Assembly (NCBI GenBank): GCA_021849595.1
Contig: JAJZSR010000001.1
Span: 6,004-70,003 of the forward strand
Direction of reading: 5' to 3'
DNA: 64,000 nucleotides
From: Pseudomonadota bacterium
GTDB lineage: Bacteria; Pseudomonadota; Gammaproteobacteria; Burkholderiales; Thiobacillaceae
Part shown: piece after piece, positions 22,952-51,920 of the stretch
Layout: the number at the start of each line of letters is the position of its first letter
Numbering within the stretch: position 1 is the stretch's first letter
Position numbers and translations under genes: made by a program
The notes under the pieces: generated by a model
Told to the model about the DNA's origin: nothing
The model's input: the letters and a program-made list of their open reading frames with translations, nothing else
The model's database searches: none

Positions 22952-24457
22952 TCAGCCTGCAACAGGCTTATCGTCACGTCCCCTGAAAACTTTAGCGTGC
23001 ATATTCTGTGGCGACGCTGGGTGTTGATGCGGCTCTTCGCGCAAAGCCTGCAGGCGCCGATGCAACTCCCCGATTTTGGCAACGAGTTCATCGACACGCG
23101 GGGCAGCACCTGCGGGCGCCGGGGCATTTGCCGCGCCCGGGGCGCATAACCGGCCGCAGAACGCCGCAATGGTCTGAGCGGCCTGCGCTTGGCGCGCCAG
23201 CCCCTCGCGCAAGCTGGCCAGGGCTGGCCGCACATCGGCCCGTAGTGCCTCTACCGGCTCCGCGTCGGCCGCAGCCTCCCCAGCCTGCAGCGCTAGGCCG
23301 GCTTGCGCGATGTCGCGCGCCAAATCCATGCCTTCGGCGCACAGGGGGTCGAGCTGTTCGCCCAAAGCGGCGAGCTGGGCGGGTTCGGCTTGGCCCTGCA
23401 GTAGGGCCAGACGCAGATTCAGGCATAGCAGTAGCAGCTGCTCGACTTTTTCCCCCGCTGCTTGCAGAGCCGGGGCCAGGCCATCGGGCTGCGCGTGGCC
23501 GCGCCTGCGCTCGGGCAGCTCCCGCGCCAACGCGTCCTGGATTTCCTGCGCCCGCTCGCTGCCCGAGCGCAAGCCGGCGGCGAGCCCCTGCAGGCCGCGC
23601 AGCAATTTATCGAAATGCTCGGCCCCCGCAAGCTGTGGACCGGTCTGGACCGCGGCGCAGACCTTGGCCAGTTGACCGGCCAGTGTCTCCAACTCTGCCG
23701 CCGCTTGTTCCGCCTGCGCCAGCTTGCCCACGGCGGCTTCCCGCATGTTGGCGCTGCGGCCCTCCAGTTCCTCCAGGTCTGCCGCCAGCGCGCGCAAGCC
23801 GCGCCCGACGGGCAAGGCTGCCACCGACAAACCGGCCGCCATGGCCCGTAACCGATCGCGCAGGGCAGCGTGCTGGCGGCGCCAGCCCCAGGCCAGATAG
23901 GCGGCCGCCAGCCCCAGCAGCGTGACGCTGCCCAGGGCGAACAGCGCCAGGTTGTGCTCCACCATGACGCGCAGTCGGGCGCTGCGCGCGGCCTGCGCCA
24001 GTCCCTGGCGCCCCAGGCGGGCAGCATATCGGCCCAGCGCCTGCTGCAGCCGCGCCAGTTGCGCCGTCGAAGCGGCGGTAAGCACCGCACCGCTGGCGAG
24101 CGGGTGGCTCAACTCCACCAGTGCGGCCAACGCTTGCCGGTCGGCCCCGTCGAAGGGCAGCGCAGCCGCCTGGCCGTAGAGACCCTGCAAGACCCCATCG
24201 GCAAACTGCATGCGGTTGCCGGCGACCGCCGCCGCGCCGTTGGTCCCCGATGCGGCCTGGTTCGCCAGTTGGCGCGCCGCCGCCACCTCGTTCTGCACCA
24301 CTTGCAGTTGCATGGTCATCCGGCCCAGCCGCGCCCGCGCTTCCATGCCCTGCTCGACGCCCCGCAACTGCCAATAGGCCCAGGCCGCCCCGCCAGCCAG
24401 CAAAGCGGCGGCGACCAGGGCCAGAAAGAGTAACGCGTAGCCGGGGGTAAGCTTCAC
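22952..24457 (-). CDS. MCP-like membrane protein: TM1, periplasmic region, TM2 and a long Ala/Leu-rich coiled coil, without a canonical MCP signalling tip
   Basis: 501 aa with TM segments at the N-terminus and around residues 170-195, followed by about 300 aa of heptad-like Ala/Leu/Gln sequence. There is only a weak tip-like stretch (EQLLLLCLNLRLALLQG). Its start overlaps the upstream cheW-like stop. Confidence 0.6.
   Translation of the reverse strand: MKLTPGYALLFLALVAAALLAGGAAWAYWQLRGVEQGMEARARLGRMTMQLQVVQNEVAAARQLANQAASGTNGAAAVAGNRMQFADGVLQGLYGQAAALPFDGADRQALAALVELSHPLASGAVLTAASTAQLARLQQALGRYAARLGRQGLAQAARSARLRVMVEHNLALFALGSVTLLGLAAAYLAWGWRRQHAALRDRLRAMAAGLSVAALPVGRGLRALAADLEELEGRSANMREAAVGKLAQAEQAAAELETLAGQLAKVCAAVQTGPQLAGAEHFDKLLRGLQGLAAGLRSGSERAQEIQDALARELPERRRGHAQPDGLAPALQAAGEKVEQLLLLCLNLRLALLQGQAEPAQLAALGEQLDPLCAEGMDLARDIAQAGLALQAGEAAADAEPVEALRADVRPALASLREGLARQAQAAQTIAAFCGRLCAPGAANAPAPAGAAPRVDELVAKIGELHRRLQALREEPHQHPASPQNMHAKVFRGRDDKPVAG
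22968..22994 (-). promoter_or_regulatory. Sigma28 (FliA) promoter of fliC
   Basis: The minus strand reads TAAAGTTT-N11-GACGATAA against the consensus TAAAGTTT-N11-GCCGATAA (one mismatch), about 70 nt upstream of the fliC ATG. Confidence 0.85.
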
Positions 24458-24897
24458 GGCGCCGCCCCGCCCCCCGCAGCCAACAGCACGGCGGGTTCCA
24501 GGATGGGATCGATGTCATCGCCTTGGCGCACCAGCCCGGCGATGGCATTCCACGGCGGCGGCAGCACAGCCTGCAATGGCAGCACGGCAGAAGGCGGCAA
24601 GCGCCGCAGACCCAGCACGGCGTCCACCCGCAAACCCAGCGCCTGGCCATCCCGTGCCCAGATCACCAAGCGCTCCTGCTGAGCCTCCCGTACCGTCCCC
24701 TGCGCCAGCCAAAGGGCGGCATCCAGCACCGTGACCGGACGCCCCTGCCAGGCGATGACGCCCAGGCAGGACGGGCAGGCGCCGGGCACGCAGGCCAAGG
24801 GCGGCATGCGCATCACCTGGCGCACGCCGCCGGCCGCCAAAGCCCAGCGCTGCTCTCCAAGACGGAATACCAGCCAGTCTGTCGCGGTGCCGTTCAC
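24454..24897 (-). CDS. CheW-like coupling protein
   Basis: 147 aa with the typical CheW pattern (WLVFRLGEQRWALAAGGVRQVMRMPPLACVPGACPSCLGVIAWQGRPVTVLDAALWL...LGLRVDAVLGL). Confidence 0.8.
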   Translation of the reverse strand: MNGTATDWLVFRLGEQRWALAAGGVRQVMRMPPLACVPGACPSCLGVIAWQGRPVTVLDAALWLAQGTVREAQQERLVIWARDGQALGLRVDAVLGLRRLPPSAVLPLQAVLPPPWNAIAGLVRQGDDIDPILEPAVLLAAGGGAAP

Positions 24898-26093
24898 GCT
24901 GCATTCTCCGGCGTGACAATGACTTCCGGCCGCAACAACAGCACCACCTCGCCTTGCGCGCTCACTGCCGCACCGCCTAACTCAGCGGGATATAGGGCGG
25001 CTGGAAGCAACGGCTGGATGCGCAGGCTTTCCGTGCCGTGCACCCGATCGGCCCAGAGCCCGATGCGATGCCGTCCGCTCTCGACCAGGACGATGCGGGC
25101 ATCCACCGGGCGCTCTCCGAGCTTCCAACGCCCGCGCACATCCAGCACCGGCACTGCCGCGCCGTTGACGGCCGCCAGGGCTTTCTCGCCGGACAGGGCC
25201 CTGACGTCGCGTGTGGGTTCCACAAAACCGAGAACATTGGCCGCCGGCAGCCCGAACAGGGCGGGCCCTATGGCCAGCTTAAGCACGGCCATCGTTTCCG
25301 CCTCGGGAAATTCGGCAGGAAGTGGCGGCCGAAGCCGCGGTGGCGTGGCAGCAGTGTGCCCGCCGGCATCGAGCGCCGCCGGCTCCGGTAGGCTTTCCGT
25401 CTGTAATGGGGCCGCATATTGCACCGCCGCCTCCATTTGCAGGTCGGGCGGATTGACGGGCAACTCGGGGACCACCCCCAGATAAAGGCGTTCGATCTGT
25501 TCCCGGAAAGCACGCCATTCGAGCATCCACTCCTGGAACATTTCGGCCACCGGCGCCCCTGTAACGCCAGGCGGTTCCGGGGGTGTGGGACTAGGCATGG
25601 GCTGATCCGGCGGCAGGGCATCTTGGCTCCGCGGCGGTTCCGGCGCGGCCTTGGCCACATCATCCCCTGTATCGACAGGCAAGCCCCCATCGCAAATTTC
25701 TGCGCGGACATCAGCTTGCGCCGCCGCAGTAGCCGCAACGCCCAGCACCGCCAGATGCCGGCCGATCTCCCGGCCGGCTCCCAGCAGGTTTTCTCTCGTT
25801 TCATCGGACGGCGCGCCGGCAGTCTTCGCCAGGCGAATCTCCTGTTGCCGGCAAAGCTCGGCCAGCGGTGCGATTTCCAGAAACTCGGCGCCTATCCTGA
25901 TGCCCCGCAGGGCTTCCAACGCGGCATCCACCGGCGCTTGCGCGGACGGTGCGAGCGCCTCCAGGAATTCCTCCAGATAGCGCTGCGCATCGGCCAAAAA
26001 AGCCTGCAACAAGGCGCGATTGCCGGCGAGCTGCGTCATGCCGAGCGGCTGCGGGACGGCAACGCCCCGCGGGGGGCGACGGAATTGCGCCAA
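24894..26093 (-). CDS. Pseudo-HPt / CheW-domain hybrid (CheA-like scaffold with no dimerisation or kinase domains)
   Basis: The N-terminal four-helix HPt-like segment aligns to the CheA P1 domain in this window, with Arg in place of the phospho-His (ALEALRGIRIGAEFL versus IFRAFHTLKGGAGFL). A Pro-rich linker follows, then a C-terminal CheW-like domain (AVLKLAIGPALFGLPAANVLGFVEP...IGLWADRVHG). An alternative start lies at 26039. Confidence 0.7.
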   Translation of the reverse strand: MAQFRRPPRGVAVPQPLGMTQLAGNRALLQAFLADAQRYLEEFLEALAPSAQAPVDAALEALRGIRIGAEFLEIAPLAELCRQQEIRLAKTAGAPSDETRENLLGAGREIGRHLAVLGVAATAAAQADVRAEICDGGLPVDTGDDVAKAAPEPPRSQDALPPDQPMPSPTPPEPPGVTGAPVAEMFQEWMLEWRAFREQIERLYLGVVPELPVNPPDLQMEAAVQYAAPLQTESLPEPAALDAGGHTAATPPRLRPPLPAEFPEAETMAVLKLAIGPALFGLPAANVLGFVEPTRDVRALSGEKALAAVNGAAVPVLDVRGRWKLGERPVDARIVLVESGRHRIGLWADRVHGTESLRIQPLLPAALYPAELGGAAVSAQGEVVLLLRPEVIVTPENAA

Positions 26094-40783: not shown

Positions 40784-40799
40784 GCCAAACGTCAAAATC

Positions 40800-43700
40800 A
40801 TGAACGCTAATGCCGCTAATCCCTCCTCGGTGTCGCAATGGACTATTTGCACCCCCACGCGCTCCGGGAATCTGCGTGTTTTTAGAAACGATATCGGTGC
40901 TGCTACTCGCTCATTATTGGAATACGGCGAGTGGGCTTGGAACGAGATTACCTTTATGTTCCAGTTCGCCGATCAAGGCTCGACCATAATCGATGTTGGC
41001 GCCTACGTCGGAACCCACACTTTGGCTTTTGCCGGCCATGTCGGGCCAAGCGGCCATGTGTATTCGATAGAAGCCCAGCCCGCCTCCGTAAGTGTTCTGA
41101 AGCACAACGTTGCAGAAAGCGGGTTTGCGCACGTCGATGTAATCCATGCCGCCGCATCAGCCTCGCCTGGAATCATTCAACTTAGCGCAATCGACATTAC
41201 CGCGGCGCACAGTTTTGGCAGCGCAGCAATCGAGGAGCAACGATATATCGAAACTGGCCAGGTAGATGGAGCGATCATCCAGGTCCCAGCGATCACCCTC
41301 GATAGCCTGCGGCTCGCCGGTGCGCCAGCGCTTATCAAGATCGATGTCGAAGGGATGGAAAGCACGGTGCTTCAGGGAGCAAGAGAGCTCTTGTTTAAGT
41401 ACCGACCAGTGATCTATGCCGAATGTAATTCCATAGACGCCGGCGCGCAGACGCTCAATCGCCTGCACGAGTTCGGTTATGCGGCGTTTGCTCATGTCGT
41501 CGATGCCTTCAATCCCGACAATTGGAGAAAGGCCACACACAATATGTTCGGTGCCGCCCGTGAGGTAGCCATCGTCGGTATCCCTCTTGAGCGCCGAGCC
41601 AACGCTCTGCAGATTACGCAACGCCCTGTTGAGGATTTCTTCGAACTGCGCTCTCTCGACGATTTGTGCGGCGCCCTGCTGCTTAAGCCACAATATCCGT
41701 CCGAGGTGCTCCAGCACACTACCGCCGCAGCTAGTTCACGTTTTCAGCAACTACTGGGACGACTGACTCTCGGCCCGACAGCCCCCAAGGCTGATCCGCC
41801 GGTAGAGTTGAGGATACTGCACGGAGGCCGCATCACTGGCGCAGAAGTTGCTGTCTTGCTGCATTTGCACTACCCGGATCTCTGGCAAGAATTTGCAGAG
41901 CTTATCCGCCAAATTGAGACTGAATGCGATCTCTATATTTCGCTGACCGACAACAGCATACAAGTGCTGCCGGCAATAATCGAGGTCTTTCCGCACGCAT
42001 ACGTTGTTCTGGCGGGAAACCGTGGTCGAGACATTGCGCCACGACTCGCCCTCCTGCGTCAGATACGACGGCATTCATATGAACGCATTCTCTTTCTCCA
42101 TGGAAAAAAATCTCCCCATTTAAGGAATATCGAGCGTATCGACATCCCCTTTCTTCAACACCGCGATGGCGATCGCTGGCGCCGAGAACTGCTTCAGGGA
42201 CTTACTACAGATATGCCCCGTGTCGTCGAGGTATTTAAACGTAATCCCAAGCTCGGATTGCTGGGACCGCAAGGATTCTGGCTGAGCCTGAATCGCGACT
42301 CCAATCTCTCCCGGGTTGCTGCGCTCGGCAACCGAATGGGCGTTGCAGTGGATCCTAACCGTCATGGCTACTTCGGCGGTTCCATGTTTTGGTGTCGCCC
42401 GCAGGCGCTCGACCCATTGCTTGCGCTCGGCCTTGGCACGACGGATTTTGAGAACGAATCCGGCCAAACCGACGGTACGCTGGCCCACGCGGTGGAACGA
42501 CTGTTCACTCTCAGTACGGAAAAAGCAGGATTGCAGGTGGCAGACACCGCCGGCAACACTCTTGGCGAACCGCCACACCCCCTTCTTCCCTGGCTCCCCG
42601 AACACCGTTGGTCCCTGGCAGAAAAATCCTGGGCGGAAGAAGTGCTGGCCAAGTGGCCGCAGCCGCCGCGCTTCCGCATCGCCATCGTCCCATCGTCGCA
42701 GAGCCTGCCGCCGCAACCCACTCTCACCAGCGTCCAGGGCCAATGGCTGGCCTGCGAAACCAGGGAAATCGAAGCCGCCCAAGGGGGCGATCTGCTCGGC
42801 AATATCAACAGTGCTCTGCTGGCATCCACCACAGATTGGGTTGCCATAATGGACGCCGGCGACCAGCTCGCCCCCGACGCCCTTTTCCGAGTAGCCCTGG
42901 CGATCAAACAGCATCCCGAATGGCAAGTCATCTACACGGACGAGGACAGCCTCACCGCCGACGGCCAGCATGTCAATCCGCACTGCAAACCCGATTTCAA
43001 TCCGGACTATTTGAGAAGCTTGCCCTACACGGGCGGGCTGCTGCTCATCCGGCGCGATCTGTTCGCGGATTTGGGTGGCTTCGACCCAGAGTGCGAGGGT
43101 GCCGAGGATTACGACCTGGTGCTGCGCGCCTGGGAGCAGGCGGGCGATGCCGCCATCGGCCATGTGCCCGAGGTGCTGTATCACCGCCTGCAGGGTTCCG
43201 GCCACAGCTGTAAATCGGTACCAGAAATCCTTGCTGCCGGCCAGGCGACGCTGGAAGCACATCTGCGTCGCTGCAACATCGATGCGGAAGTTCAGCCCGG
43301 CCCCTTCCCGCCCTCGTTCCGCGTGCGCTATCGCACTGTTCAGCAGCCGCTGGTATCCATCCTCATTCCCACGCGCGACCAACTGCCCATGCTGCAGCGC
43401 TGCGTGGAATCGATCATCGAGAAGACGAAATATCCGGCCTACGAAATCCTCGTCATCGACAATGACAGCCAAAGCGAGGAGGCGCGCAACTATCTCGCCG
43501 CGATAGAAAGCAAGGAAGCCGAACTCGGCGGCCGCCTGCGCGTGATTCGCCAGCCCGGCCCGTTCAATTTCTCCGCCATGAACAATACCGCGGCGCGCGC
43601 GGCGCGGGGCGAGTTTCTGCTGCTGCTCAACAACGACACTGCTGCATTGCACGACGACTGGCTGGACGAGATGATGTCCCACGCCTTGCGCCCGGAGGTG

Positions 43701-45209
43701 GGCATCGTCGGCGCCAAGCTGCTTTATCCGGACGGACGCATCCAGCATGCGGGCGTCATCCTGGGCATGAAAGGCCCGGCCGAACATCCCTTCATCACGC
43801 GCCCGCCGGAGGATCGCGGCTATTTCGGGCGCCTGCAGCTCACGCAGAATTATTCAGCGGTAACGGGCGCCTGCCTGCTAATCCGCAAATCGCTGTATGA
43901 GGAAGTCGGCGGACTGGACGAGCAGGCCTTCGCGGTTTCCTACAACGACATCGACTTGTGCCTGAAAGTCGGCGCGACGGGAAAACACATCGTCTGGACG
44001 CCTTATACCATCCTCATGCACGAAGGGTCCGCCAGCCAGAAGGGACAGGTGGAGGCCAAGCCGGACGAAGCCAAGCTCAAGCGCTTCGCCGCCGAGAAGG
44101 ATGCCATGTACACGCGCTGGCTCCCCAAGATGGCCTACGACCCTGCTTATAACCGCCATCTGAGCCTCGCTACCACCGACTTCCTGCTCGACGACCAGGC
44201 AGCGCTGGCCTGGGATCCGGACTGGCGCCCGCGCCCACGCATCCTCGTGCACGCCGCCGACCGCGAAGGCTGCGGCGAGTACCGCATCATCGCGCCCATG
44301 CGCGCCCTCAATCGCGCCGGGCACACTCAGGGCTGGGAATCCATGCGCATCTTCGAGCCGGCGGAAATGGAGCGCATGAACCCGGACAGCCTGGTGGTGC
44401 AGCGCCAGATGGAATGGCCGCAGATCGAGGCGCTGGAACGCCACAAGAAATACAGCAAGGCCTTTCGCGTGTTCGAGATCGACGACCTCATCACCAACCT
44501 GCCGCTCAAGAGCACGCACCGCTCCGGCATCCACAAGGACATTTACAAGCGCTTCCGCCGCTCGGCCGGACTGTGCCAGCGCCTGGTGGTGGCCACCCAG
44601 CCGCTGGCGCAAGCCTACCGCGACCTGAGCGACGAGGTCGTCGTGGTGCCCAATTACCTCGAAACGCACCGCTGGGGCAGCCTGACCCCACAGCGCCGTG
44701 AGGGCGCCAAACCGCGCGTGGGCTGGGCAGGCGGCATCGGCCATCAGGGCGATCTGGAAATGATTGCAGACGTGGTGCGCGATCTGGCGGAAGAAGTCGA
44801 TTGGGTGTTTTTCGGCATGTGCCCGGATGCCCTGCGGCCTTATATCAAAGAGTTCTATCCCGGCGTGCCGCTCGATCAATATGCGCCAAAACTCGCCAGT
44901 CTCGACTTGGATCTGGCCGTCGCGCCGCTGGAGGACAACCCTTTCAACGAGGCCAAAAGCCACCTGCGCCTGCTGGAGTACGGCATCCTGGGCTACCCGG
45001 TGGTGTGCTCCGACTTGGCGCCCTATCAAGGCGATTTCCCCGTCTGGCGCGTTCCCAACAAATATGCCGCCTGGATGAAGGCCATTCGCGAAGCGCTCAG
45101 CGACCGAGAGGCGCTGGCGGCACGTGGGGACGAACTGCGCCAACACATCCGCCGGCATTGGATGCTGGAAGACCATCTGGATGTCTGGCTCAAGGCCTGG
45201 CTGCACTGA
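40800..45209 (+). CDS. 1469-aa multidomain fusion: FkbM methyltransferase, RgpF-like (rhamnan synthesis F) domain, degenerate GT2, GT2 and a GT1/GT4-like C-terminal domain
   Basis: FkbM domain at about 40932-41444 (IIDVGAYVGTHT...LIKIDVEGMES). RgpF-like domain at about 41832-42524 (AVLLHLHYPDLW...GNRGRDIAP...GGSMFWCRPQAL). Degenerate GT2 at about 42672-43199 (WVAIMDAGDQL...IYTDED). GT2 at about 43353-44024 (VSILIPTRD...ILVIDNDS...LNNDT...GACLLIRK). GT-B-like C-terminal domain at about 44238-45206. I chose the start at MNANAANP (40800). The upstream part of the ORF track entry overlaps the GT9 gene. Confidence 0.8.
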   Translation: MNANAANPSSVSQWTICTPTRSGNLRVFRNDIGAATRSLLEYGEWAWNEITFMFQFADQGSTIIDVGAYVGTHTLAFAGHVGPSGHVYSIEAQPASVSVLKHNVAESGFAHVDVIHAAASASPGIIQLSAIDITAAHSFGSAAIEEQRYIETGQVDGAIIQVPAITLDSLRLAGAPALIKIDVEGMESTVLQGARELLFKYRPVIYAECNSIDAGAQTLNRLHEFGYAAFAHVVDAFNPDNWRKATHNMFGAAREVAIVGIPLERRANALQITQRPVEDFFELRSLDDLCGALLLKPQYPSEVLQHTTAAASSRFQQLLGRLTLGPTAPKADPPVELRILHGGRITGAEVAVLLHLHYPDLWQEFAELIRQIETECDLYISLTDNSIQVLPAIIEVFPHAYVVLAGNRGRDIAPRLALLRQIRRHSYERILFLHGKKSPHLRNIERIDIPFLQHRDGDRWRRELLQGLTTDMPRVVEVFKRNPKLGLLGPQGFWLSLNRDSNLSRVAALGNRMGVAVDPNRHGYFGGSMFWCRPQALDPLLALGLGTTDFENESGQTDGTLAHAVERLFTLSTEKAGLQVADTAGNTLGEPPHPLLPWLPEHRWSLAEKSWAEEVLAKWPQPPRFRIAIVPSSQSLPPQPTLTSVQGQWLACETREIEAAQGGDLLGNINSALLASTTDWVAIMDAGDQLAPDALFRVALAIKQHPEWQVIYTDEDSLTADGQHVNPHCKPDFNPDYLRSLPYTGGLLLIRRDLFADLGGFDPECEGAEDYDLVLRAWEQAGDAAIGHVPEVLYHRLQGSGHSCKSVPEILAAGQATLEAHLRRCNIDAEVQPGPFPPSFRVRYRTVQQPLVSILIPTRDQLPMLQRCVESIIEKTKYPAYEILVIDNDSQSEEARNYLAAIESKEAELGGRLRVIRQPGPFNFSAMNNTAARAARGEFLLLLNNDTAALHDDWLDEMMSHALRPEVGIVGAKLLYPDGRIQHAGVILGMKGPAEHPFITRPPEDRGYFGRLQLTQNYSAVTGACLLIRKSLYEEVGGLDEQAFAVSYNDIDLCLKVGATGKHIVWTPYTILMHEGSASQKGQVEAKPDEAKLKRFAAEKDAMYTRWLPKMAYDPAYNRHLSLATTDFLLDDQAALAWDPDWRPRPRILVHAADREGCGEYRIIAPMRALNRAGHTQGWESMRIFEPAEMERMNPDSLVVQRQMEWPQIEALERHKKYSKAFRVFEIDDLITNLPLKSTHRSGIHKDIYKRFRRSAGLCQRLVVATQPLAQAYRDLSDEVVVVPNYLETHRWGSLTPQRREGAKPRVGWAGGIGHQGDLEMIADVVRDLAEEVDWVFFGMCPDALRPYIKEFYPGVPLDQYAPKLASLDLDLAVAPLEDNPFNEAKSHLRLLEYGILGYPVVCSDLAPYQGDFPVWRVPNKYAAWMKAIREALSDREALAARGDELRQHIRRHWMLEDHLDVWLKAWLH

Positions 45210-45277
45210 GCCGTAAACATGATCGAGGCCCTGCAATCCTGCGGGTGCCCGGCTTTTTGGCATCCAAGGTTTACCGC

Positions 45278-46558
45278 ATGCAGCCCACCCAACCCGCCGA
45301 CCCCACCCAAAACCCCGAAACGACCGAGAGCGCCTCCGGCCAGTCGGTCTACATCGCCCGCCAGCCCATCCTGGACCGCAAACAAAACATTTTCGGCTAT
45401 GAATTGCTGGCGCGTGCCGATGCCACCAGCCAGTCGGCCCCCGCCAGGCATACGATCGAGTCGGATACCGCATTTCTCTTCAATGCCCTGTCGAACTTCG
45501 CCACCGAGCAGTTGTTCGGCGACAAGCTGGCCTTCGTCAACTGCATACTGGAAGACCTCAGCGGCGAACATCTGGAAATCGTGTTTCCCGAGCGCATCGC
45601 CCTGGAAGTGCCGCGCGTGCCCGAGGACGACCCGGCCGCCATCGGCGCCGTCGCCGAGAAGCTGGCGTGCCTGCGCGGGCGCGGCTTCCGCATTGCCGCA
45701 GGGGCTTTCGTCGCCACCGGGCCGTATGCGCCCTGGCTGCCGCACGTCAGTTTCGTCAAATTCGACGTTCAGTCCGGCAATCCGGCCCTGGCCCAGTTTC
45801 TCGCAAAAAAAGCGCAGCGCCAGTTTCAGTTGGTCGCCGAAAAAGTGGAAATGCCCGACCAGTTCAAAACCCACTTCGATCTGGGTTTCGATTATTTCCA
45901 GGGCTATTACTTTGCCAAGCCCCAGACCGTGACCGCCAAGGTGGTCAACCCGGCCTTCTCCAACGTTCTGCAGCTCATCAACCTGGTCGCCAAGGAGGCC
46001 GAGCTGCGCGAAATCGACGAGGTCATCAAGCGCGATCCGGCGCTGTCGTTCAAGCTTTTGCGCTACATCAATTCGTCCGGCTTCGGCCTCATGTCGGAAG
46101 TGACTTCCTTCCGCCATGCCGTCACTCTGCTGGGTTATCGCAAGCTTTTCCGCTGGCTCACGCTGCTGCTCGCCACCATCGACAAATCCGGCATGCCACC
46201 TGCGGTGTTCCGCACGGCGGTGACCCGGGGGCGCATGATGGAACTGCTGGCCGGCAATCTCATGTCGCCGGAGGAATGCGACAACGCCTTCGTGACCGGG
46301 GTGTTCTCCCTGCTAGACACCATGCTGGGGGTCCCCATGGATAAAGCGCTCGCCAGCATCACGCTGCCGGAGGCCGTGGGCGATGCGCTGCTGCACCACC
46401 AGGGTACCTACGGGCCCTTCCTGAAGATCGTCGAGGCCTGCGAAAAAGGGGCATTCGCCGACATCGAACTGGAGGCGATGCTGTTGAATCTGGATGCGGC
46501 CAAAGTGTCTTCCGCCCATCTCCAGGCGCTGGCCTGGACCGAAAGCTTCGGCCTCTGA
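45278..46558 (+). CDS. Degenerate EAL domain + HDOD domain signalling protein
   Basis: N-terminal YIARQPILDRKQNIFGYELLAR (ELL in place of EAL), with DDFG replaced by AGAF and FQGYYFAKP retained. C-terminal HDOD domain (DPALSFKLLRYINSSGFGL...AVTLLGYRKL). Confidence 0.8.
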   Translation: MQPTQPADPTQNPETTESASGQSVYIARQPILDRKQNIFGYELLARADATSQSAPARHTIESDTAFLFNALSNFATEQLFGDKLAFVNCILEDLSGEHLEIVFPERIALEVPRVPEDDPAAIGAVAEKLACLRGRGFRIAAGAFVATGPYAPWLPHVSFVKFDVQSGNPALAQFLAKKAQRQFQLVAEKVEMPDQFKTHFDLGFDYFQGYYFAKPQTVTAKVVNPAFSNVLQLINLVAKEAELREIDEVIKRDPALSFKLLRYINSSGFGLMSEVTSFRHAVTLLGYRKLFRWLTLLLATIDKSGMPPAVFRTAVTRGRMMELLAGNLMSPEECDNAFVTGVFSLLDTMLGVPMDKALASITLPEAVGDALLHHQGTYGPFLKIVEACEKGAFADIELEAMLLNLDAAKVSSAHLQALAWTESFGL

Positions 46559-46597: not shown

Positions 46598-47632
46598 CTA
46601 TGCCGCGCCCAGCGCCTGCAGCCGCTGCGCGATCTCGGGGAGTGCGGCGGTCGCGCCCGCTATGCCGTGCCGGATGGGCTGCACCGCTTCGAGCGCCCCG
46701 GCTGCGCCCTGCACCTGCGCCTCGGCGATGTCGCGCACTTTCTGCAGGGTTCCGCTGGTCGCGCCGAGAAATTCGCAGGCCTCGCCGACCAGGTTGTCCA
46801 CGCGGCCGATGTGTTCCACGGCGCGCTGCATTTCCTCGCCCACCTGCTGCGAACCGCCGCGGATGCTGTGCGTGAGATTCTCGATCTCTTGGGTGATGGA
46901 GGCGGTGCGGCGCGCCAGATTGCGCACTTCGTCGGCCACTACGGCAAAGCCCCGGCCGTGCTCACCCGCGCGCGCCGCCTCAATGGCGGCATTGAGCGCA
47001 AGCAGATTGGTCTGCTGGGCGATCTCGCGTATGCCCGCGGTTAACCGCTCCACGGAACGAACGGAGTCCACGAATCCCACCAGCTTCTCTTCCGTACCCT
47101 GGACGAAGCCCATGACCTCGGACACCTCCCCCAGTACGGTGGCCATGGCCTCGTTGCCGGCCTGGATGGACGACTGGGTTTCGCCCAGATTGTCTTCCAG
47201 CAGGCGCAATTGCGACTGCATGCCCTCTACCCGTTCGATCGCCTGGCTCACGCCGGCGGCCCCCTCGGTCATGCGTTCCAGCAGATGATCGAGGTCATTG
47301 CTTGCCTGCCCCAAGGATTCCAGATCCAACGCGGCCACCTGCGGAACATCCGCGCGTTGGCTGAGCAGTGCCGCGCGCGCGGATGCGAGCTTCTCAGCCC
47401 AGGCCGGCTCCAGCTCGCGCAATGGCGCGTCGTCGCCCTCGGCGAGCACCGCCAGAACCGCGGCCAGGAGTTTTTCTCTATCCTCCCGCAATCTTTCCAC
47501 CAATCCGCCGGGACGCCCGCTTTCCCGGGCATCCCGCTCGCGTGCGCCTTCGTTCTGCGGCATCGCCTGCTTGTCTTCCACGGCCAACTCAGCACCCATC
47601 ACCGCCTCCGTTTTACGCTGTTTCCCAGCCAT
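46598..47632 (-). CDS. Soluble methyl-accepting chemotaxis protein (signalling domain only, no TM segments)
   Basis: Canonical tip [42 protein letters not shown] chose the start at MAGKQRK, 3 nt after the upstream stop. Confidence 0.88.
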
Positions 47633-47634
47633 CG

Positions 47635-48399
47635 TTAGTGCCCCTGTTGCCAGTTGCCGAATCCCACGGGCAGGTCCGCAAACCAGTCGATGAATCTCTC
47701 GACATTTTTCCCCGTGTAAATGGCCCCGTGCTGGGGGCATAGAAAATCGATATCCAGCTTGGATACCCGTTCGCACCAATCGCGCTTCGCCTCCATGGAG
47801 GGCATCCAGCGCCGGTGGAAATATTCCGCGTGCTGGATATGGGCATCGAAGGCGCGCGGGCTGTCATCGTCCCGTCGATCTATGAACGCATCATGGCCGG
47901 GAGGCAGCAGCGCGGCCCCGACATCCCCGGAAAAATAGACTTTGGCGGCGGGGTCATAAAGATGGAAATTGGCCGGCGAATGTAAATAGTGGGCCGGCAC
48001 CAGGGTCAGGCGCCGTCCGGCGAAATCAATGTCGCCGCCCTCATCCGGGATCTCGTGGAAATACGCCTCCAGCGCGCCGTAATGACGGATGAATCCCGCC
48101 CATAATTTCGGCACATGCCAGAGGATGCGCGGATTGCATGCATTCCAAAGCGGCAGGCTGGAAGCAATGTCGGGGTCCTGATGGCTGACCAGGGCAGCCT
48201 TCACCGAGCCGGGCGGCAGCACGCCCATGAGCGCGCCGAACACCTGATTGAAGACTTCGGCCCCGCCCGGGTCCATGAGCATGGTCTGGTCTCCTACCGC
48301 CAGCGCGTAAACGTTGGCGTCGATCACGCGCTGCTCGCCCTGATCGAAAAGCACGAACCAGTGATGCTCACCCTGGCTGTAGAAGCGCTGCCCCTTCAT
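47635..48399 (-). CDS. Metallo-beta-lactamase-fold, flavodiiron-core-like protein (ODP-like candidate sensor)
   Basis: 254 aa with MBL-type motifs VSHQDPD, AHYLHSP, YFSGD and CPQHG. There is no flavodoxin domain. The gene is coupled to the soluble MCP downstream. Confidence 0.65.
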
Positions 48400-49022
48400 C
48401 TCAGGCTCCCTTCGATCTGCTCGCGGTAGCCGCGCAGCACCTCCCGCACGCTGGAAACCGCCCGGTGCATGTCCATGGAAACCTGCGCCAGCGGCGCCGT
48501 CGAGCCGCTTTTCAGCGCCGCCTCGATACGACCGTTGACCACCACGTAATCGAGTTCGGTGACGACTTCTTCGAAACGCTCCAGCGCCTTCAACAGGCTG
48601 GACCCGATTTCGCGATACTGCCTCTCGTTGATATCGCGTTCTTCCTCCAGGCGATTGCGATACGATTCCAGGCCGCCGCAGCGCCCCGCCACCTCGCTTT
48701 GCATGCCGTCCTGTACGCGCTCCAGCGTCTCCAGTTGCAGCGCAGCGCGCAGGTCGTCCAGGCGCCCGGTCATGAACGGAGCGATGATTTCCTGGACCGC
48801 GTCCACTGCTGCCTGCATGGCACCGGCGCCTTCCCGGAAAGACTGCGCCACTACGCCGTAGCCGGACAAATCCTTGCCGTGGCGCTTGACGAGTACCTGG
48901 GCGTTCAGCGCCTTGCGGTCAATCTCACGCAGACGCCGCTTGATTTCGAGCTGAAACTGACAGGTGGCATCGGCCATGTCGATAAAGTCCTGGCGCGCCC
49001 GTTTTTCCTTTTCTGTGGTCAT
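48396..49022 (-). CDS. 208-aa helical protein with a divergent MCP hairpin-tip-like motif (mini-MCP-like)
   Basis: ALNAQVLVKRHGKDLSGYGVVAQSFREGA aligns with the MCP tip [29 protein letters not shown] at about 13 of 29 identical positions. A second weaker IEAA-like motif is present (VVNGRIEAALKSG). It occupies the position right after cheA. Confidence 0.55.
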   Translation of the reverse strand: MTTEKEKRARQDFIDMADATCQFQLEIKRRLREIDRKALNAQVLVKRHGKDLSGYGVVAQSFREGAGAMQAAVDAVQEIIAPFMTGRLDDLRAALQLETLERVQDGMQSEVAGRCGGLESYRNRLEEERDINERQYREIGSSLLKALERFEEVVTELDYVVVNGRIEAALKSGSTAPLAQVSMDMHRAVSSVREVLRGYREQIEGSLR

Positions 49023-49026
49023 GATG

Positions 49027-50946
49027 TCAAACCCTGCGCTGCGCCCTGCTCACGGAAGTGCCGTCGAGAATCAGCACGACATCCCCGCCGCCGGAAATCG
49101 TGGCGCCCTGATACCAAGTCTTTTCCATGCCGATGTCCAAGGGCTTGACCACGGAATCCTCCGTTCCCAGCGCTTCGGATACCACCAGCAGGCCATGCTC
49201 GGTCAAGATGCCCTCGCTCGCCTCGTGCGCAGTGCTGATGGGTGAGGACTGCAGCACATGGCCCAAATCGACGTAAGGAACGACGCGATCGCGGCCCACC
49301 TGGTACATCGGTTTGCCGGAAATTGTGTGCAAACAGGGTGTGTCGATCTCGATGAGATTTTCGATCGCGGCCACCGGCAGGGCATAGGTTTCGCGCCGCA
49401 GGCGGAAATAAAGCACGGGCAGCACCGCGAGGGTCAAAGGCAGTTCGAGCACGATGGTAGTGCCCTGATTGAGCCGGGTCTGCACGTCGATGCGCCCGCG
49501 CAGGCCGCGTACGGTTTCGCGCACGACGTCCATGCCGACGCCACGGCCCGACATGTCGGTGACCGCCTCTTTGGTGGAAAAGCCGGGCAAAAAAATCAGA
49601 TCCAGCATGTCGCGCTCGGACAGGCGCGCACCCTCTTCGGCGCTGACCACCCCTTTAGCGATCGCCGACTTGAGAATGGCCTGCGGGTTCATGCCGCGCC
49701 CGTCGTCGGACACCTGGATTTGCACCTTGTCGCCCAGATGCACGGCAGCGACTCTTAACACCGCCTTTTCCGGCTTGCCGAATTTCTGGCGTTCGGCCGG
49801 GCTTTCTATGCCGTGGTCCAGGGCGTTGCGCACGAGGTGGATGAGCGGCGGCGACAAGGCATCGACCACCGTCTTGTCGATTTCCACGTCCTCGCCTTCC
49901 AGCTCCAACTGCACGTTCTTGCCCAGGCTGCGCGAGGTGTCGCGCACCACGCGCGGCAGCGCCTGGAATAAGCGCTTGCAGGGCTGCATGCGCAGGCGCA
50001 TGACCGTGCCCTGTAAATCGTTCACCGCCAGGTCCGCCTCGCGTGCGATGCGGGTGAGGTTTTCGTCCTCCTGGTTCAGGTTGGCCAGCGCCGCATTGAG
50101 GCGATTGCGCAGCAGGACCAGTTCCCCCACCTGGTTCATCACCGCGTCCAGGCGGCTGGAGTCGACGCGTATGGTGCTCTCTTCCCGGCTCTCGCCGCCC
50201 ATGGCCTGCGTCTGCCCGCCGGGGCGGCCGGTCTTGAGCGCGGGCGCCGCCGCGGCGGAGCCAGCCTCGGGCTCCTTGCCAAGAGCGGCAGGCGGCGCCG
50301 CGGCGGGCGCCTCCGGGCCGCCCATGCCGGGCGCTCCGCCGGCTCCGTACATCTGGTCCAGATAGCGCTCGAACTCGTCCTGGGTAATCTCGTCACCGCC
50401 CGAACCTGCTGCCGGTGCCTCAGCCGGCGCGGCGCCCCGCTGTTCGACAAAGACGCCTTCCGTGCCTTGCTCCGTCGGCCGCCGCGACACCCAAAGCGAG
50501 TTTTCGGAAGCGGTTTGCGGCTCTTGCGCCGCCGCAGGCTCCACAGCCGATTCGGCGGTAGCCCCTGGCGTGCCGCTGGCAAGGGCATGGATCATATCCC
50601 TGAGTTCGACCGGACCGGGCTCGGGGTATTCGCCCGTGGCCATGGCATCGAGCATGGATTCGATGATGTCCGTGCCGCGCAGAATCACGTCCACCATCTG
50701 GCTGGTCACCGGGATTTCGCCGTGGCGGGCCTTGTCCAGCAAATCCTCCAGACCATGGCACCACTCCACCAAACTCTGCGCATCGAGAAACCCAGCGCCG
50801 CCCTTGAGGGTATGGAAGGCGCGAAATATGGACCCCAGAATTTCGGCGTTCTCGGGATCGTTCTCCAGCCCCAGCAAATCGGCCTGGGCCTGACTCAACA
50901 TCTCGCGGGATTCGGCGAGAAATTCCTGGAGAATATCGTTATCCAT
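49027..50946 (-). CDS. cheA: Chemotaxis histidine kinase CheA
   Basis: P1 HPt domain (FRAFHTLKGGAGFL), HATPase motifs (HLVRNALDHGIE, DDGRGM, GRGVGMDVV) and a C-terminal CheW-like P5 domain. Confidence 0.95.
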   Translation of the reverse strand: MDNDILQEFLAESREMLSQAQADLLGLENDPENAEILGSIFRAFHTLKGGAGFLDAQSLVEWCHGLEDLLDKARHGEIPVTSQMVDVILRGTDIIESMLDAMATGEYPEPGPVELRDMIHALASGTPGATAESAVEPAAAQEPQTASENSLWVSRRPTEQGTEGVFVEQRGAAPAEAPAAGSGGDEITQDEFERYLDQMYGAGGAPGMGGPEAPAAAPPAALGKEPEAGSAAAAPALKTGRPGGQTQAMGGESREESTIRVDSSRLDAVMNQVGELVLLRNRLNAALANLNQEDENLTRIAREADLAVNDLQGTVMRLRMQPCKRLFQALPRVVRDTSRSLGKNVQLELEGEDVEIDKTVVDALSPPLIHLVRNALDHGIESPAERQKFGKPEKAVLRVAAVHLGDKVQIQVSDDGRGMNPQAILKSAIAKGVVSAEEGARLSERDMLDLIFLPGFSTKEAVTDMSGRGVGMDVVRETVRGLRGRIDVQTRLNQGTTIVLELPLTLAVLPVLYFRLRRETYALPVAAIENLIEIDTPCLHTISGKPMYQVGRDRVVPYVDLGHVLQSSPISTAHEASEGILTEHGLLVVSEALGTEDSVVKPLDIGMEKTWYQGATISGGGDVVLILDGTSVSRAQRRV

Positions 50947-51434
50947 CAGATCCCCAGCTCCTTCAGCAAGGCATCGACGTCATCCTGGCCGATCGGCCCG
51001 CCGTCGTCCTCCAGCACACAAGCGCTCGCCAGGGGAAGCTCGACGTCTATACCCAGCTCGCCGAGCGCGCCGCCGATGCGATCCTCCACTGCCTGCAGCA
51101 GGCTGATGGCTTTCTTTAGGCGCTGGCCCGCCAGATCCTGGCCTTGCTGGCTCGCCAAAATCATGTGCAACTGGCTTTCCAGGACATCGAGATGGCCGTC
51201 TATGAAGCCGCCGCGCGTGGCGCGGATCGCTTCCAGTTCGACGAAGGCGCCTTCCACCGCTTCCAGTGTGGCCATGGCCTGTTTCTCCGTAAGCCTGAGG
51301 GCCTCCTCCAGCGGATGGCTGGCGGTGGGGAGATCGGACGACGCGGACATGATGCGCCTCACCCCTTCCCGCAGCATGGCCTCGGCCTCCTGCAACTGGC
51401 GCAGGGCATCCTCCTGAGTGCAAGAAAGCGTCAT
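50946..51434 (-). CDS. cheZ: CheY-P phosphatase CheZ (short form)
   Basis: 162 aa with an active-site-like [10 protein letters not shown] motif and a C-terminal CheY-binding peptide ([13 protein letters not shown]). Located between cheY and cheA. Confidence 0.8.
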
Positions 51435-51823
51435 TTGCCGTGTCCCAATCTTTCCATGATTGCGTCGAGTTTTTCTTTGAGCGTTTGTGCATTGAACGGC
51501 TTGACGATATAGCCGTTGACGCCCGCCTGAGCGGCCGCCAAGATGTTTTCCTTCTTGGCTTCCGCGGTAATGAGCAAAACCGGCAGACTGCGGATGGCCG
51601 GGTTGTCCGAAGCGCGGATATGGCGCAGCAAATCGATGCCCTGCATCTGCGGCATGTTCCAGTCGGTCACGACGAACTCTATGCCGCCGGCCTGGATCCG
51701 GCGCAGGGCTTCTTCGCCGTTCTCGGCCTCGTCGATGGTCCCGGTGACATAGCCGGTCTGCATCAGCAGGCCGCGCACGATGCGCCGCATGGTGGGGAAA
51801 TCATCGACAACCAAAAATTTCAA
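51431..51823 (-). CDS. cheY: Chemotaxis response regulator CheY
   Basis: 130 aa single REC domain ([14 protein letters not shown]...[16 protein letters not shown]...[10 protein letters not shown]...GYIVKPF). Confidence 0.95.
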
Positions 51824-51893: not shown

Positions 51894-51920
51894 TATACGG
51901 CGCGGGCCGGCAAAACTTGA
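51894..51920 (-). promoter_or_regulatory. Weak sigma28-like promoter candidate upstream of cheY
   Basis: The minus strand reads TCAAGTTT-N11-GCCGTATA against TAAAGTTT-N11-GCCGATAA. The -10 element has three mismatches. Confidence 0.3.

Follow-up and report, generated by a model that had tools for sequence, protein, structure and literature searches.

Organization of the chemotaxis operon

The window analysed herein (the whole 64 000 nt stretch of DNA, from a member of the Thiobacillaceae) harbours a large flagellar gene cluster, inside which lies an operon encoded entirely on the reverse strand. Its gene order is cheY–cheZ–cheA, a 208 aa gene, an ODP (oxygen-binding di-iron protein) and a soluble MCP (Table 1). 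The operon is preceded by a sigma-28 (FliA)-like promoter, which we take to resemble the sigma-28 consensus. The pattern AAGTTT-N10–12-GCCGWWWA, which was derived from this very site, has a single match in the window and none in 100 shuffles. In an rpoF deletion strain of A. caldus, cheY, cheZ, cheA and cheW are down-regulated (PMC6543871).

Table 1. Features of the che operon and of associated genes within the window
Feature	Coordinates	Strand	Description
cheW	24454..24897	(−)	147 aa; PF01584 E=4.4e-22; 22 kb off, same flagellar cluster
399 aa protein with C-terminal CheW-like domain	24894..26093	(−)	PF01584 E=4.6e-13, aa 273–393
Soluble MCP	46598..47632	(−)	344 aa; MCPsignal PF00015 E=2.4e-31, 109 bits (cut-off 34.6)
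Conserved N-terminal helical segment of MCP	47333..47509	(−)	aa 42–100; preceded by a variable, low-complexity N-terminus
ODP	47635..48399	(−)	254 aa; PF19583; PDB 6qrq, 6qnm
ODP motif P-Q223-H224-G	47725..47736	(−)	aa 222–225; Gln is the ODP-specific replacement ligand
ODP motif F-S-G-D159	47923..47934	(−)	aa 156–159; bridging Asp by alignment
ODP motif A-H137-Y-L-H140-S	47977..47994	(−)	aa 136–141; H140 aligns with FDP ligand His
ODP metal motif 2, H73-Q-D75-P-D77	48169..48183	(−)	aa 73–77; third His of MBL/FDP motif absent
Mini-receptor	48396..49022	(−)	208 aa; two tandem chemoreceptor-tip hairpins; upstream partner of ODP
Mini-receptor hairpin 2	48447..48560	(−)	aa 155–192, TELDYVVVNGRIEAALKSGSTAPLAQVSMDMHRAVSSV; degenerate second tip
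Mini-receptor hairpin 1	48825..48932	(−)	aa 31–66, LREIDRKALNAQVLVKRHGKDLSGYGVVAQSFREGA; keeps CheW/CheA-P5 contact residues
cheA	49027..50946	(−)	639 aa; Hpt, dimerisation, HATPase and CheW-like P5 domains
cheZ	50946..51434	(−)	162 aa; Pfam CheZ PF04344 E=1.3e-8, above gathering score
cheY	51431..51823	(−)	130 aa, TTG start; Response_reg E=2.9e-28
Sigma-28 (FliA)-like promoter	51894..51918	(−)	TCAAGTTT-N11-GCCGTATA; ~70 nt 5′ of cheY

With regard to the core signalling genes, the cheY product matches the NCBIfam CheY model NF007901 at E=3.5e-50, with 169 bits, which is under the model's 189-bit cut-off, and a Pfam domain scan recognised no P2 domain in the cheA product. Neither cheW nor cheV is present in the che operon of the window; because of this, the distant cheW gene, for which tblastn searches with the CheW genes of related loci were also performed, is the likely coupling protein for the operon. 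The 399 aa protein bearing a C-terminal CheW-like domain presumably has a ParP-like architecture. Among the window ORFs scanned, which were a subset of all ORFs, neither cheR nor cheB turned up.

At the 3′ end of the operon the stop codon of the 208 aa gene, referred to below as the mini-receptor, overlaps the ODP start (ATGA), and the ODP stop is separated from the MCP start by 2 nt (TAA-CG-ATG). The first-pass annotation had described the ODP and MCP as a pair, 3 nt apart, at the end of the cheYZA operon. Their close proximity and shared operon hold true, but the spacer is one of 2 nt and the mini-receptor gene intervenes between cheA and the ODP. We lean towards regarding the 3′ end of this sigma-28-type cheY–cheZ–cheA operon as a translationally coupled three-gene input module, composed of mini-receptor, ODP and soluble MCP.

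Identity and metal site of the ODP

The 254 aa protein had initially been described as a flavodiiron-core protein with HQDPD, AHYLHS, FSGD and PQHG motifs and no flavodoxin domain, and as ODP-like, all of which is upheld. It aligns with Pfam PF19583 over the full profile (positions 1–194 of 194) at E=2e-61, and its 207.7 bits (cut-off 27.2) surpass its score for Lactamase_B (E=2.5e-13) by 157 bits. The best matches amongst solved structures are both ODPs, 6qrq (E=1.3e-51, with aa 6–246 aligned) and 6qnm (E=2.3e-39), with flavodiiron proteins reaching only ~1e-5 in the same PDB search.

Motif 2 aligns with the H-x-E-x-D-H of FprA 1ycf, and its H73, D75 and D77 are invariant in all 123 sequences, both solved ODPs included. 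Similarly, H137, H140 and D159 are invariant across eight diverse ODPs, those of Treponema denticola and Thermotoga maritima among them, whilst Q223 and H224 are each conserved in 122 of 123 sequences. Ligand roles were assigned not from coordinates but by alignment to FprA 1ycf, together with the statement that, in the T. maritima ODP, a Gln at motif 5 replaces the third His of motif 2 (PMC7785958). In alignments the ligand positions coincide with those of the solved ODPs as well as of flavodiiron cores, as the first-pass annotation had anticipated, and a hydrolase profile, which it had entertained as a competing outcome, does not prevail: a glyoxalase II or Zn-hydrolase reading is ruled out by the profile scores and the ligand pattern. 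By sequence, the flagged gene is confirmed as a full-length ODP-type di-iron protein.

It is very improbable that this protein is instead an enzyme, either a flavodiiron-type O2/NO scavenger or an MBL-fold hydrolase, whose place in the che operon is incidental. The MBL fold, together with the distant similarity to NO/O2 reductases (E ~1e-5), would suit such a role, and one source calls homologues ‘flavorubredoxin’. It is, however, a single-domain protein by Pfam scan, with neither a flavodoxin nor a rubredoxin domain and with no redox partner gene, and its ligand set is ODP-specific rather than the H-x-H-x-D-H of Zn-hydrolases. The 157-bit margin over Lactamase_B likewise speaks against an enzyme, as does its strict, translational coupling to receptor-derived proteins across three phyla. 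Within the che operon the ODP is adjoined on both sides by receptor-type genes, and this arrangement is conserved.

ODPs have reportedly been described by Muok et al. in 2019 from T. denticola (TDE2498, PDB 6qrq/6qwo) and T. maritima (PDB 6qnm/6r9n), and in the literature searched Treponema and Thermotoga are the only genera in which ODP-based sensing has been characterised experimentally. The window ODP resembles these proteins in matching PF19583, in its size of ~250 aa and single domain, in its motifs H-Q-D-P-D, H-x-x-H, S-G-D and P-Q-H-G, which are identical, and in the location of its gene beside chemoreceptor-type genes. It differs from them in sharing only ~37–40 % identity, and in being placed opposite them by an NJ tree rooted at its midpoint, where ODPs with a mini-receptor partner fall on one side and the Treponema and Thermotoga ODPs on the other. 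As judged from sequence, the mini-receptor-partnered ODPs are thus a branch separate from those characterised. Whilst the ODP is a known kind of protein, its tandem-tip partner is a barely documented variant.

A mini-receptor with two tandem tips

The 208 aa mini-receptor has no match in Pfam (PF00015 gives no hit at E ≤ 0.01), and its relatives score 19–40 bits on PF00015 (cut-off 34.6), with two of ten passing. No NCBIfam model is applicable to it, and genes of this type are annotated today as ‘hypothetical’ or ‘chemotaxis protein’, with no family model. It has 196 close homologues, and BLASTP against the neighbouring MCP yields an alignment of tip on tip. Although a PDB search with the single sequence returned nothing meaningful (best Bcl-X, E=0.7), the family profile finds Tm14 as its best PDB hit (E=5e-4), with both conserved blocks of the mini-receptor placed on one and the same tip.

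The duplication is significant only via a wider family of mini-receptors, as direct comparison of the N- and C-terminal halves with hhalign within the window's own subfamily gives E=0.1 and the wrong register. In the wider family the N-terminal half matches the canonical tip at P=2.6e-19, the C-terminal half matches it at 2.8e-8, and the N-terminal half matches the C-terminal half at 2.2e-5; the connection of these halves with the window family has values of 6e-13 and 5e-15. Hairpin 2 aligns with the canonical tip profile in the same register for both the window family (P=0.017) and the wider family (2.8e-8). By these sequence comparisons the mini-receptor is a protein of two tandem chemoreceptor-tip hairpins, derived from a receptor tip, and is not a canonical MCP. 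The latter comprises one long symmetric hairpin, with an adaptation region of at least ~12 heptads per arm; the mini-receptor possesses two tip-like blocks per chain and, if tip 1 turns, predicted helices of ~33–55 residues.

One of the closest known comparisons is with Tm14 (TM0014; PDB 3g67/3g6b), presumably the ODP-coupled receptor in T. maritima. Both proteins are soluble, lack a sensor domain and are roughly 200 aa in size (the crystallised chain of Tm14 has 213 residues). According to its published structure, Tm14 forms one conventional hairpin per chain and is a homodimer; in keeping with this, both blocks of the mini-receptor align on one Tm14 tip, and the helices of the mini-receptor are therefore about half as long (~7 heptads). 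The mini-receptor is further distinguished from Tm14 by having two non-equivalent tips, and the window protein lies below the Pfam MCPsignal threshold.

Conservation of the mini-receptor and ODP partnership

The order mini-receptor then ODP is found in all 78 genome loci retrieved through the mini-receptor gene (Burkholderiales, Acidithiobacillia and Acidobacteriota), and the mini-receptor lies directly 5′ of the ODP in all three loci retrieved through the ODP. The same holds for the wider mini-receptor family, whose members make up no fewer than 1377 protein clusters and belong to Rhodocyclales, Burkholderiales, Acidithiobacillia and Acidobacteriota: in ten of ten loci examined (eight members, Dechloromonas and Zoogloea included) the mini-receptor gene is directly 5′ of an ODP, with the full ODP gene in view in seven and cut within the ODP in three. 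These wider-family pairs adjoin hemerythrin, FNR/Crp, HemN and cbb3 assembly genes; in the fully read loci there are no che genes nearby, nor is there an adjacent MCP. Two lone mini-receptor paralogues occur without an ODP (loci L034 and L036), and the neighbours of that in L036 yield no informative Pfam hits. In the loci examined, the constant partner of the ODP is the upstream mini-receptor and not the downstream MCP.

The first-pass annotation had viewed the ODP and MCP as mirroring the Treponema and Thermotoga pairs, with the MCP as the receptor. Such a scheme, in which the cognate receptor of the ODP is the downstream 344 aa MCP, as for TDE2498 and TDE2496, and the mini-receptor does something else, for instance in array assembly or in localisation, is considered possible but rather unlikely. 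TDE2496 is the ODP-coupled, sensor-less cytoplasmic receptor of T. denticola (PMC7666581), and the window MCP is comparable to it in having no recognisable sensor domain and no transmembrane segment (maximum Kyte–Doolittle 19-residue mean 0.89). The 2 nt spacer also favours this pairing, as does the presence of an MCP within 200 nt downstream of the ODP in 57 of the 78 related loci; in this respect the proposed co-conservation of the two genes is borne out in part, the invariant neighbour being the mini-receptor gene. In addition, the N-terminal helical segment of the MCP (column identity of 0.66–0.81 over aa 41–60 in 27 orthologues) could be a docking site.

Against this, in five Acidithiobacillus-type loci (L040, L042, L044, L047 and L059) a CheW-like gene directly follows the ODP; in A. 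caldus the gene matching this CheW-like one is cheV, located after the MCP. The downstream MCP is optional in relatives and, where present, usually carries its own CZB sensor domain, as in Thiomonas, A. ferrianus, A. caldus and two MAGs (one of these MCPs adds a weak PAS_9 hit), so that these receptors have an input of their own. This MCPsignal and C-terminal CZB architecture, that of TlpD-type soluble receptors, is found in the Thiomonas orthologues of the window MCP and in the ODP-adjacent MCPs of A. ferrianus and A. caldus, for which we assume a likeness to H. pylori TlpD. The window MCP and the copies of loci L001 and L012, on the other hand, end shortly after the signalling domain without a CZB; 3′ of the window MCP there is no room for a CZB remnant, as a convergent EAL-HDOD gene ends 39 nt away. 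As its orthologues carry a CZB domain, the 344 aa receptor did not arise as a client of the ODP devoid of a sensor. Moreover, the wider family maintains the mini-receptor and ODP without any adjacent MCP or che operon, and amongst 82 ODPs of the Treponema/Thermotoga type 42 have a downstream MCP and four an upstream mini-like gene, with none having both. The receptor downstream of ODPs of the latter type is a canonical one of ~285 aa and in no case occurs together with an upstream mini-like gene, whilst those of the window branch have the tandem-tip mini-receptor upstream, a gene that had been overlooked. The mirroring, as put forward, is not supported.

The first-pass description of the MCP itself, as a TM-less receptor with a canonical signalling tip, is accurate. 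The tip lies at E224, its block being 96–100 % conserved in 27 orthologues, and the C-terminal arm extends for ~17 heptads. The receptor has no match to a simple methylation-site consensus, and the C-terminal pentapeptide is absent.

A predicted docking face of the mini-receptor

Comparison with the Tsr contact residues listed in a table of the CheA-P5/CheW interface (PMC13098124) reveals that hairpin 1 has the identical residue at the equivalents of L380, N381, V384, R388 and R404, with next to no variation in 39 homologues. In hairpin 2 the Tsr contact set is not kept, with Leu at the equivalent of R388 and Asp or His at that of R404. As hairpin 1 retains the CheW/CheA-P5 contacts and hairpin 2 has lost them, the mini-receptor would have one docking face. 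Within the window subfamily the positions of Tsr F373, Q374 and I377, which belong to or adjoin the CheA-P5/CheW interface, are occupied in hairpin 1 by Arg, Glu and Arg, respectively, and this may alter the usual packing with other receptors, with CheW or with P5; the F373 and I377 positions of Tsr also take part in trimer-of-dimers packing.

These features could also be those of a decoy: instead of activating the kinase as a receptor, such a protein would imitate the tip and compete with full-length receptors for CheW or CheA-P5, which it would sequester or release according to the state of the ODP, leaving the pathway as a whole gated by O2/Fe(II). Contacts kept in one hairpin only, the two Arg residues at the F373 and I377 positions, the absence of an adaptation region, with helices of only ~45–55 residues each in the AlphaFold model, and the position of the gene immediately after cheA in the che-operon clade would all accord with this. 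Hairpin 1 of the wider family, however, is hydrophobic at the I377 position and mostly also at the F373 position, making receptor-like packing possible there, and an inhibitor would not need a strongly conserved second hairpin. A decoy is accordingly judged improbable.

Predicted structure of the mini-receptor

An AlphaFold model of the mini-receptor is all-helical (pLDDT 90.5, pTM 0.84), with a turn at aa 171–174 that coincides with the homologous tip position of hairpin 2. DSSP assigns an unbroken helix through tip 1 in both this model and a second one built on the wider family. In Foldseek the first model matches single-chain four-helix bundles with TM 0.52–0.63 and RMSD 5–6 Å, whilst the second, at TM 0.27–0.49 and RMSD 9–15 Å, is not a compact four-helix bundle. 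Neither model has a hit of E ≤ 0.001 in the PDB, receptor structures appearing only with very large RMSD. Mean-field DCA of 229 members, which is underpowered (effective number 143), gives weak peaks (z ~1.8) at the antiparallel registers expected for helices 2–3 and 3–4; for hairpin 1 the same underpowered set displays only a secondary peak at the expected sum (z=1.2). In view of the unbroken tip 1 helix and the poor second model, a single-chain pseudo-dimer is a tentative topology, and the protein may instead be a homodimer built on a long helix.

If the four-helix model is right, the topology is the same as that of engineered single-chain receptor ‘dimers’, made from Tar/Tsr-type fragments, which reconstitute core signalling units (bioRxiv 10.1101/2020.03.27.011866): the C-terminal arm is linked to the next N-terminal arm, with both tips at one end. 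The mini-receptor differs from these constructs in being natural, shorter and asymmetric, its topology being a predicted one.

Proposed signalling and its distribution

Drawing on gene content, homology, the conservation of ligand and interface residues, and strict synteny, the best reading of the locus, and one we hold to be marginally favoured, is that the ODP would signal O2/Fe(II) status to CheA through the mini-receptor. By analogy with Treponema and Thermotoga, the cytoplasmic ODP (ligands His/Asp/Asp, His, Asp and Gln/His) would load Fe(II) and bind O2 as a stabilised peroxo adduct, and its conformation, as homology suggests, would report iron and oxygen status. The transducer that belongs to the ODP is most likely the mini-receptor encoded upstream, a predicted all-helical bundle that may be the single-chain equivalent of a receptor-dimer tip. 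In such an arrangement hairpin 1 would provide the single docking face for the kinase/coupling-protein layer, leaving the mini-receptor free to bind the ODP elsewhere. We infer both this binding and that of the mini-receptor to CheW or CheA, through which the complex would change CheA activity with O2/Fe(II), without a methylation-based adaptation region. The O2/Fe(II) taxis input put forward in the first-pass annotation thus stands, from sequence, as the best functional reading, with the proposed route via the downstream MCP less favoured than that via the mini-receptor.

The 344 aa MCP would, alongside the mini-receptor route, be a co-operonic soluble receptor of CZB-type ancestry whose CZB was lost in this lineage, and which may serve as scaffold for the array or as a second target of the ODP. 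Since this MCP, like TDE2496, has no sensor of its own, it could just as well be a client of the ODP.

Somewhat more tentatively, and with slightly less confidence than we attach to the signalling route, the ~200 aa mini-receptor may represent an undescribed architecture. This would be a natural, single-chain, asymmetric tip pseudo-dimer, smaller than any other known receptor and devoid of an adaptation region, with an ODP sensor in trans and CheW/CheA-P5 docking by one hairpin, and incorporated, in acid-environment lineages, into the core che operon alongside a second soluble receptor. In a Fig. S1 legend, a TREND case study notes two ODP/MCP gene orders, the MCP of one having a distinct sequence pattern (PMC7319448). 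That MCP and the mini-receptor are probably of the same family; the one-line remark, as given in the legend, is without mention of size, tandem tip duplication, asymmetric interface conservation, the joint presence of the two orders within a single che operon, or distribution.

The locus therefore reveals a second, widespread ODP branch with an invariable, miniature tandem-tip receptor as its partner. If the mini-receptor is indeed a single-chain mimic of the dimer tip, it would offer a minimal system, provided by nature, in which to study the control of CheA by a receptor tip, consisting of ~200 residues with no membrane and no methylation region, and with a soluble sensor switching with O2/Fe(II).

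With regard to its hosts, loci of the che-operon form come chiefly from Thiomonas, Acidithiobacillus, mine-drainage MAGs and acid-soil Acidobacteriota. Organisms of these groups generally inhabit Fe(II)/O2 or sulfur/O2 gradients, and a combined Fe(II)/O2 taxis input would therefore make ecological sense.

An oxygen-binding di-iron protein and its neighbours in the che operon

The che genes of the window form a compact series on the reverse strand, in which the stop of the 208-aa ORF and the start of the 254-aa ORF overlap (ATGA), and from the end of which 39 nt remain to a convergent EAL-HDOD gene. The first-pass annotation had described the 254- and 344-aa ORFs as a pair comprising an oxygen-binding di-iron protein, or ODP, and a soluble receptor (MCP), separated by 3 nt; the actual spacer is 2 nt, and the 208-aa ORF between cheA and the ODP gene, termed here the mini-receptor, had been overlooked.

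Features of the che operon and associated regions of the window
Feature	Position	Strand	Remark
Sigma-28-like promoter TCAAGTTT-N11-GCCGTATA	51894-51918	-	~70 nt upstream of cheY
cheY	51823-51431	-	first gene of compact series
cheZ	51434-50946	-	second gene of series
cheA	50946-49027	-	third gene of series
208-aa ORF (mini-receptor)	49022-48396	-	after cheA
254-aa ORF (ODP)	48399-47635	-	after 208-aa ORF
344-aa ORF (MCP)	47632-46598	-	last gene of series
EAL-HDOD gene	44801-46558	+	convergent; EAL fragment and HDOD domain
1555-aa ORF	40542-45209	+	between family-9 glycosyltransferase and EAL-HDOD genes; adjoins flgK, flgL
cheW (147 aa), 399-aa protein, GGDEF protein	24454-27080	-	in a row
501-aa ORF	22952-24457	-	directly downstream of cheW

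The 254-aa protein is almost certainly an ODP. The Pfam ODP family (PF19583) matches it over the whole model with E=2e-61, versus 2.5e-13 for the general Lactamase_B profile, and amongst solved structures the ODPs of Treponema denticola and Thermotoga maritima rank first (6qrq, E=1.3e-51; 6qnm, E=2.3e-39), followed by flavodiiron proteins at ~1e-5. Across 123 sequences, both solved ODPs among them, the motifs HQDPD (73-77) and PQHG (222-225) vary hardly or not at all, and AHYLHS (136-141) and FSGD (156-159), with H137, H140 and D159, are invariant in eight diverse ODPs, again including both. Alignment with FprA places H73, D75 and D77 at the H-x-E-x-D motif, with Ile at its final His position, and H140, D159 and H224 at the remaining ligands. 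In the T. maritima ODP the His missing from motif 2 is replaced by Gln at motif 5 (PMC7785958), a replacement that Q223 fits. No flavodoxin domain is present. The first-pass identification thus stands, a hydrolase (or glyoxalase) or reductase identity being excluded by profile, structure ranking, ligand pattern and the missing flavodoxin domain; close homologues are already labelled 'oxygen-binding di-iron domain-containing protein' at NCBI. Homology and context make it probable that the protein senses O2/Fe(II) for chemotaxis in the source organism.

Tandem receptor tips in the mini-receptor

The mini-receptor has no Pfam or NCBIfam match, and BLASTP aligns it with the neighbouring MCP on the tip motif, with an ALNA-VVA spacing of 15 residues in both. 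Its 196 close homologues, from Thiomonas, Tibeticola, Acidithiobacillus and related MAGs, display two nearly invariant blocks (aa 31-66, hairpin 1; aa 155-192, hairpin 2), and a PDB-wide search with the family profile puts the soluble receptor Tm14 first, both blocks falling on a single tip of it. An exhaustive profile search yielded >100 further representatives, nearly all of 188-236 aa and matching end to end. This wider family comprises at least 1377 protein clusters, named 'chemotaxis protein' or 'hypothetical' by their sources, for which no curated family model was found. Its N- and C-halves match the canonical tip profile (P=2.6e-19 and P=2.8e-8), each other (P=2.2e-5) and the respective halves of the window family (P=6e-13 and P=5e-15), and the comparisons of the halves with the tip and with each other share a common register. 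On these values and the shared register, the protein consists of the receptor's hairpin tip duplicated in tandem.

The CheA-P5 and CheW contact residues of Tsr (Table 1 of a 2026 review, PMC13098124) were mapped onto both hairpins. In hairpin 1, L380, N381, V384, R388 and R404 (Tsr numbering throughout) are identical and almost invariant, and G390, G395, F396 (as Tyr), V398 and A400 are also retained. Hairpin 2 retains only N381, E385 and A387; V384 is replaced by Ile, R388 by Leu and R404 by Asp/His. This makes the tips non-equivalent, and hairpin 1 alone looks capable of docking on the kinase/coupling layer.

AlphaFold modelling of the window protein with 39 homologues gave an all-helical structure (pLDDT 90.5, pTM 0.84) with a turn at aa 171-174, coinciding exactly with the position in hairpin 2 homologous to the receptor U-turn. 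The top Foldseek matches of this model are single-chain four-helix bundles (TM 0.52-0.63, RMSD 5-6 Å, ~205 columns), the predicted topology being that of a receptor-dimer tip with both subunits joined. Three results tell against regarding this topology as established: by DSSP, neither this model nor a second, wider-family one (pLDDT 91) is broken at tip 1, the second matches four-helix bundles poorly, and the DCA signal of the mini-receptor family is too weak for a decision. The hairpin is argued for by conserved Gly residues at the homologous turn and by the homology itself. A single-chain four-helix pseudo-dimer is thus the favoured, albeit unproven, reading, with a modest lean towards it. 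Engineered single-chain receptors exist, but no natural counterpart was found described in the literature searched. In one 331-aa metagenomic protein (P0255) the CheA C-terminus is fused with a mini-receptor's N-terminal half, probably through a frameshift or faulty gene calling where cheA meets the mini gene.

Conservation of the mini-receptor and ODP pairing

Amongst 80 genome loci retrieved via the mini gene (Burkholderiales, Acidithiobacillia and Acidobacteriota), ODP lies directly downstream in 78, the other two being lone paralogues, and cheA lies directly upstream wherever the locus includes that flank. In 57 of these loci an MCP follows ODP within 200 nt or less, and then a gene with a CheW-like domain (cheV in all three loci with domains checked), whilst five proceed from ODP to the CheW-like gene without an MCP between. 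Each of three ODP-anchored loci comprises cheA, a 199-206-aa gene without Pfam match, ODP, MCP and cheV, with a CZB domain in two of the MCPs and a weak CZB match in the third. Within the wider family ODP is directly downstream in 10/10 loci from eight members, seven of which show the ODP gene complete whilst three are cut within it. The two lone paralogues, at L034:478-1074 and L036:2192-2755, are second mini-receptor copies without adjacent ODP, in MAGs that both also have the che-operon copy; the neighbours of the L036 copy gave no informative Pfam match.

Dechloromonas, Zoogloea and related contigs carry the pair away from che genes. Its neighbours there are hemerythrin, TusA/DUF2249, SirB, FNR/Crp regulators, HemN and genes for cbb3 assembly, a setting suggestive of low oxygen. 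At the Rhodocyclales loci (L081, L166, L167-L170), hemerythrin, a TusA/DUF2249 protein and SirB come after the pair, with FNR/Crp, HemN and cbb3-oxidase assembly genes alongside, in what looks like a conserved low-oxygen island.

The comparison set of 82 metagenomic ODPs of the T. denticola/T. maritima type is organised differently: a canonical MCP of ~285 aa lies downstream in 42, a mini-like gene upstream in four and neither partner in 36, and none has both. The midpoint root of a neighbour-joining tree separates mini-partnered ODPs, including that of the window, from the T. denticola, T. maritima and stand-alone ODPs. Together, locus counts and tree make the mini-receptor the invariant partner of the window's ODP branch; the downstream MCP is an optional extra, confined to the che-operon clade. 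Accordingly, the proposed co-conservation of ODP and MCP holds for those 57 loci, but the mini gene is the constant neighbour; the proposed likeness to the T. denticola and T. maritima pairs extends to an ODP with a downstream MCP, but not to the branch or the upstream gene. Two loci of the T. denticola/T. maritima-type branch (L120:4968-6617 and L126:3822-5511, metagenomic) each contain two tandem ODP genes. The ODP signal may, by a slight preference, pass mainly via the mini-receptor; the latter may activate CheA, inhibit it as a decoy or act jointly with the 344-aa MCP.

Muok et al. (2019) reportedly described the ODP family and how it was recruited to chemotaxis. The TREND case study presents two ODP/MCP operon types of opposite gene order, and its Fig. 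S1 legend ascribes 'a distinct sequence pattern' to the MCP of one of them (PMC7319448); this is very probably the mini-receptor family. The literature searched yielded no description of the mini-receptor's size, tandem-tip architecture or asymmetric interface conservation, nor of a core che operon that combines the two gene orders. Alone, the window's ODP is a further member of a known family; what is added is a strictly co-conserved, tandem-tip mini-receptor, and an ODP branch arranged unlike the characterised one.

The downstream MCP

The 344-aa MCP has a textbook tip (MCPsignal E=2.4e-31) and no hydrophobic segment, in agreement with its first-pass description as a TM-less receptor. The tip lies at E224, the C-arm spans ~17 heptads, and ahead of the signalling domain the N-terminus has ~100 extra residues, of which aa 42-60 are conserved in 27 orthologues. 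Searches for a methylation consensus and a C-terminal pentapeptide found neither. Comparison of ODP-adjacent MCPs (L002:9394-12251, L040:10477-11820 and L171-L173) revealed a C-terminal CZB in the Thiomonas orthologue, in the MCPs of A. ferrianus and A. caldus, and at one MAG locus of two, the other (L172) displaying weak CZB and PAS_9 matches. CZB is absent from the window's MCP and from the L001 and L012 copies. As its relatives carry CZB, the window's MCP descends from receptors with their own sensor, the loss of which is confined to its lineage.

Promoter-like site and flagellar surroundings

The site upstream of cheY resembles a sigma-28 promoter; it is the sole window match, with none in 100 shuffles, to a pattern derived from the site itself. 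It fits the RpoF-dependent expression of cheY, cheZ, cheA and cheW in Acidithiobacillus caldus (PMC6543871). Within CheA, the CheY-binding P2 domain is not recognisable, and aa 104-255, rich in Ala, Pro and Gly, are without Pfam match.

The whole window is a flagellar cluster, harbouring flhB, fliP, fliM, fliK, fliI, fliG, fliF, motB, fliD, fliC, fliS, flgA, flgD, flgK, flgL, flgN and fliW, as well as a FleQ/FleS/FleR-like regulator set and a YcgR-type PilZ gene. cheW and the gene for the 399-aa protein, which has a C-terminal CheW-like domain in a ParP-like architecture, lie 22 kb from the che operon, unlike the relatives examined in detail, where cheV (CheW+REC) follows the MCP. The 501-aa ORF has high GC3 and no Pfam match at E<=1e-4, and may represent either a genuine gene whose family is unknown or an incorrect frame. 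With its listed start, TTG at 44801, the EAL-HDOD ORF overlaps the 1555-aa ORF before it, and the true start is thus probably further downstream.
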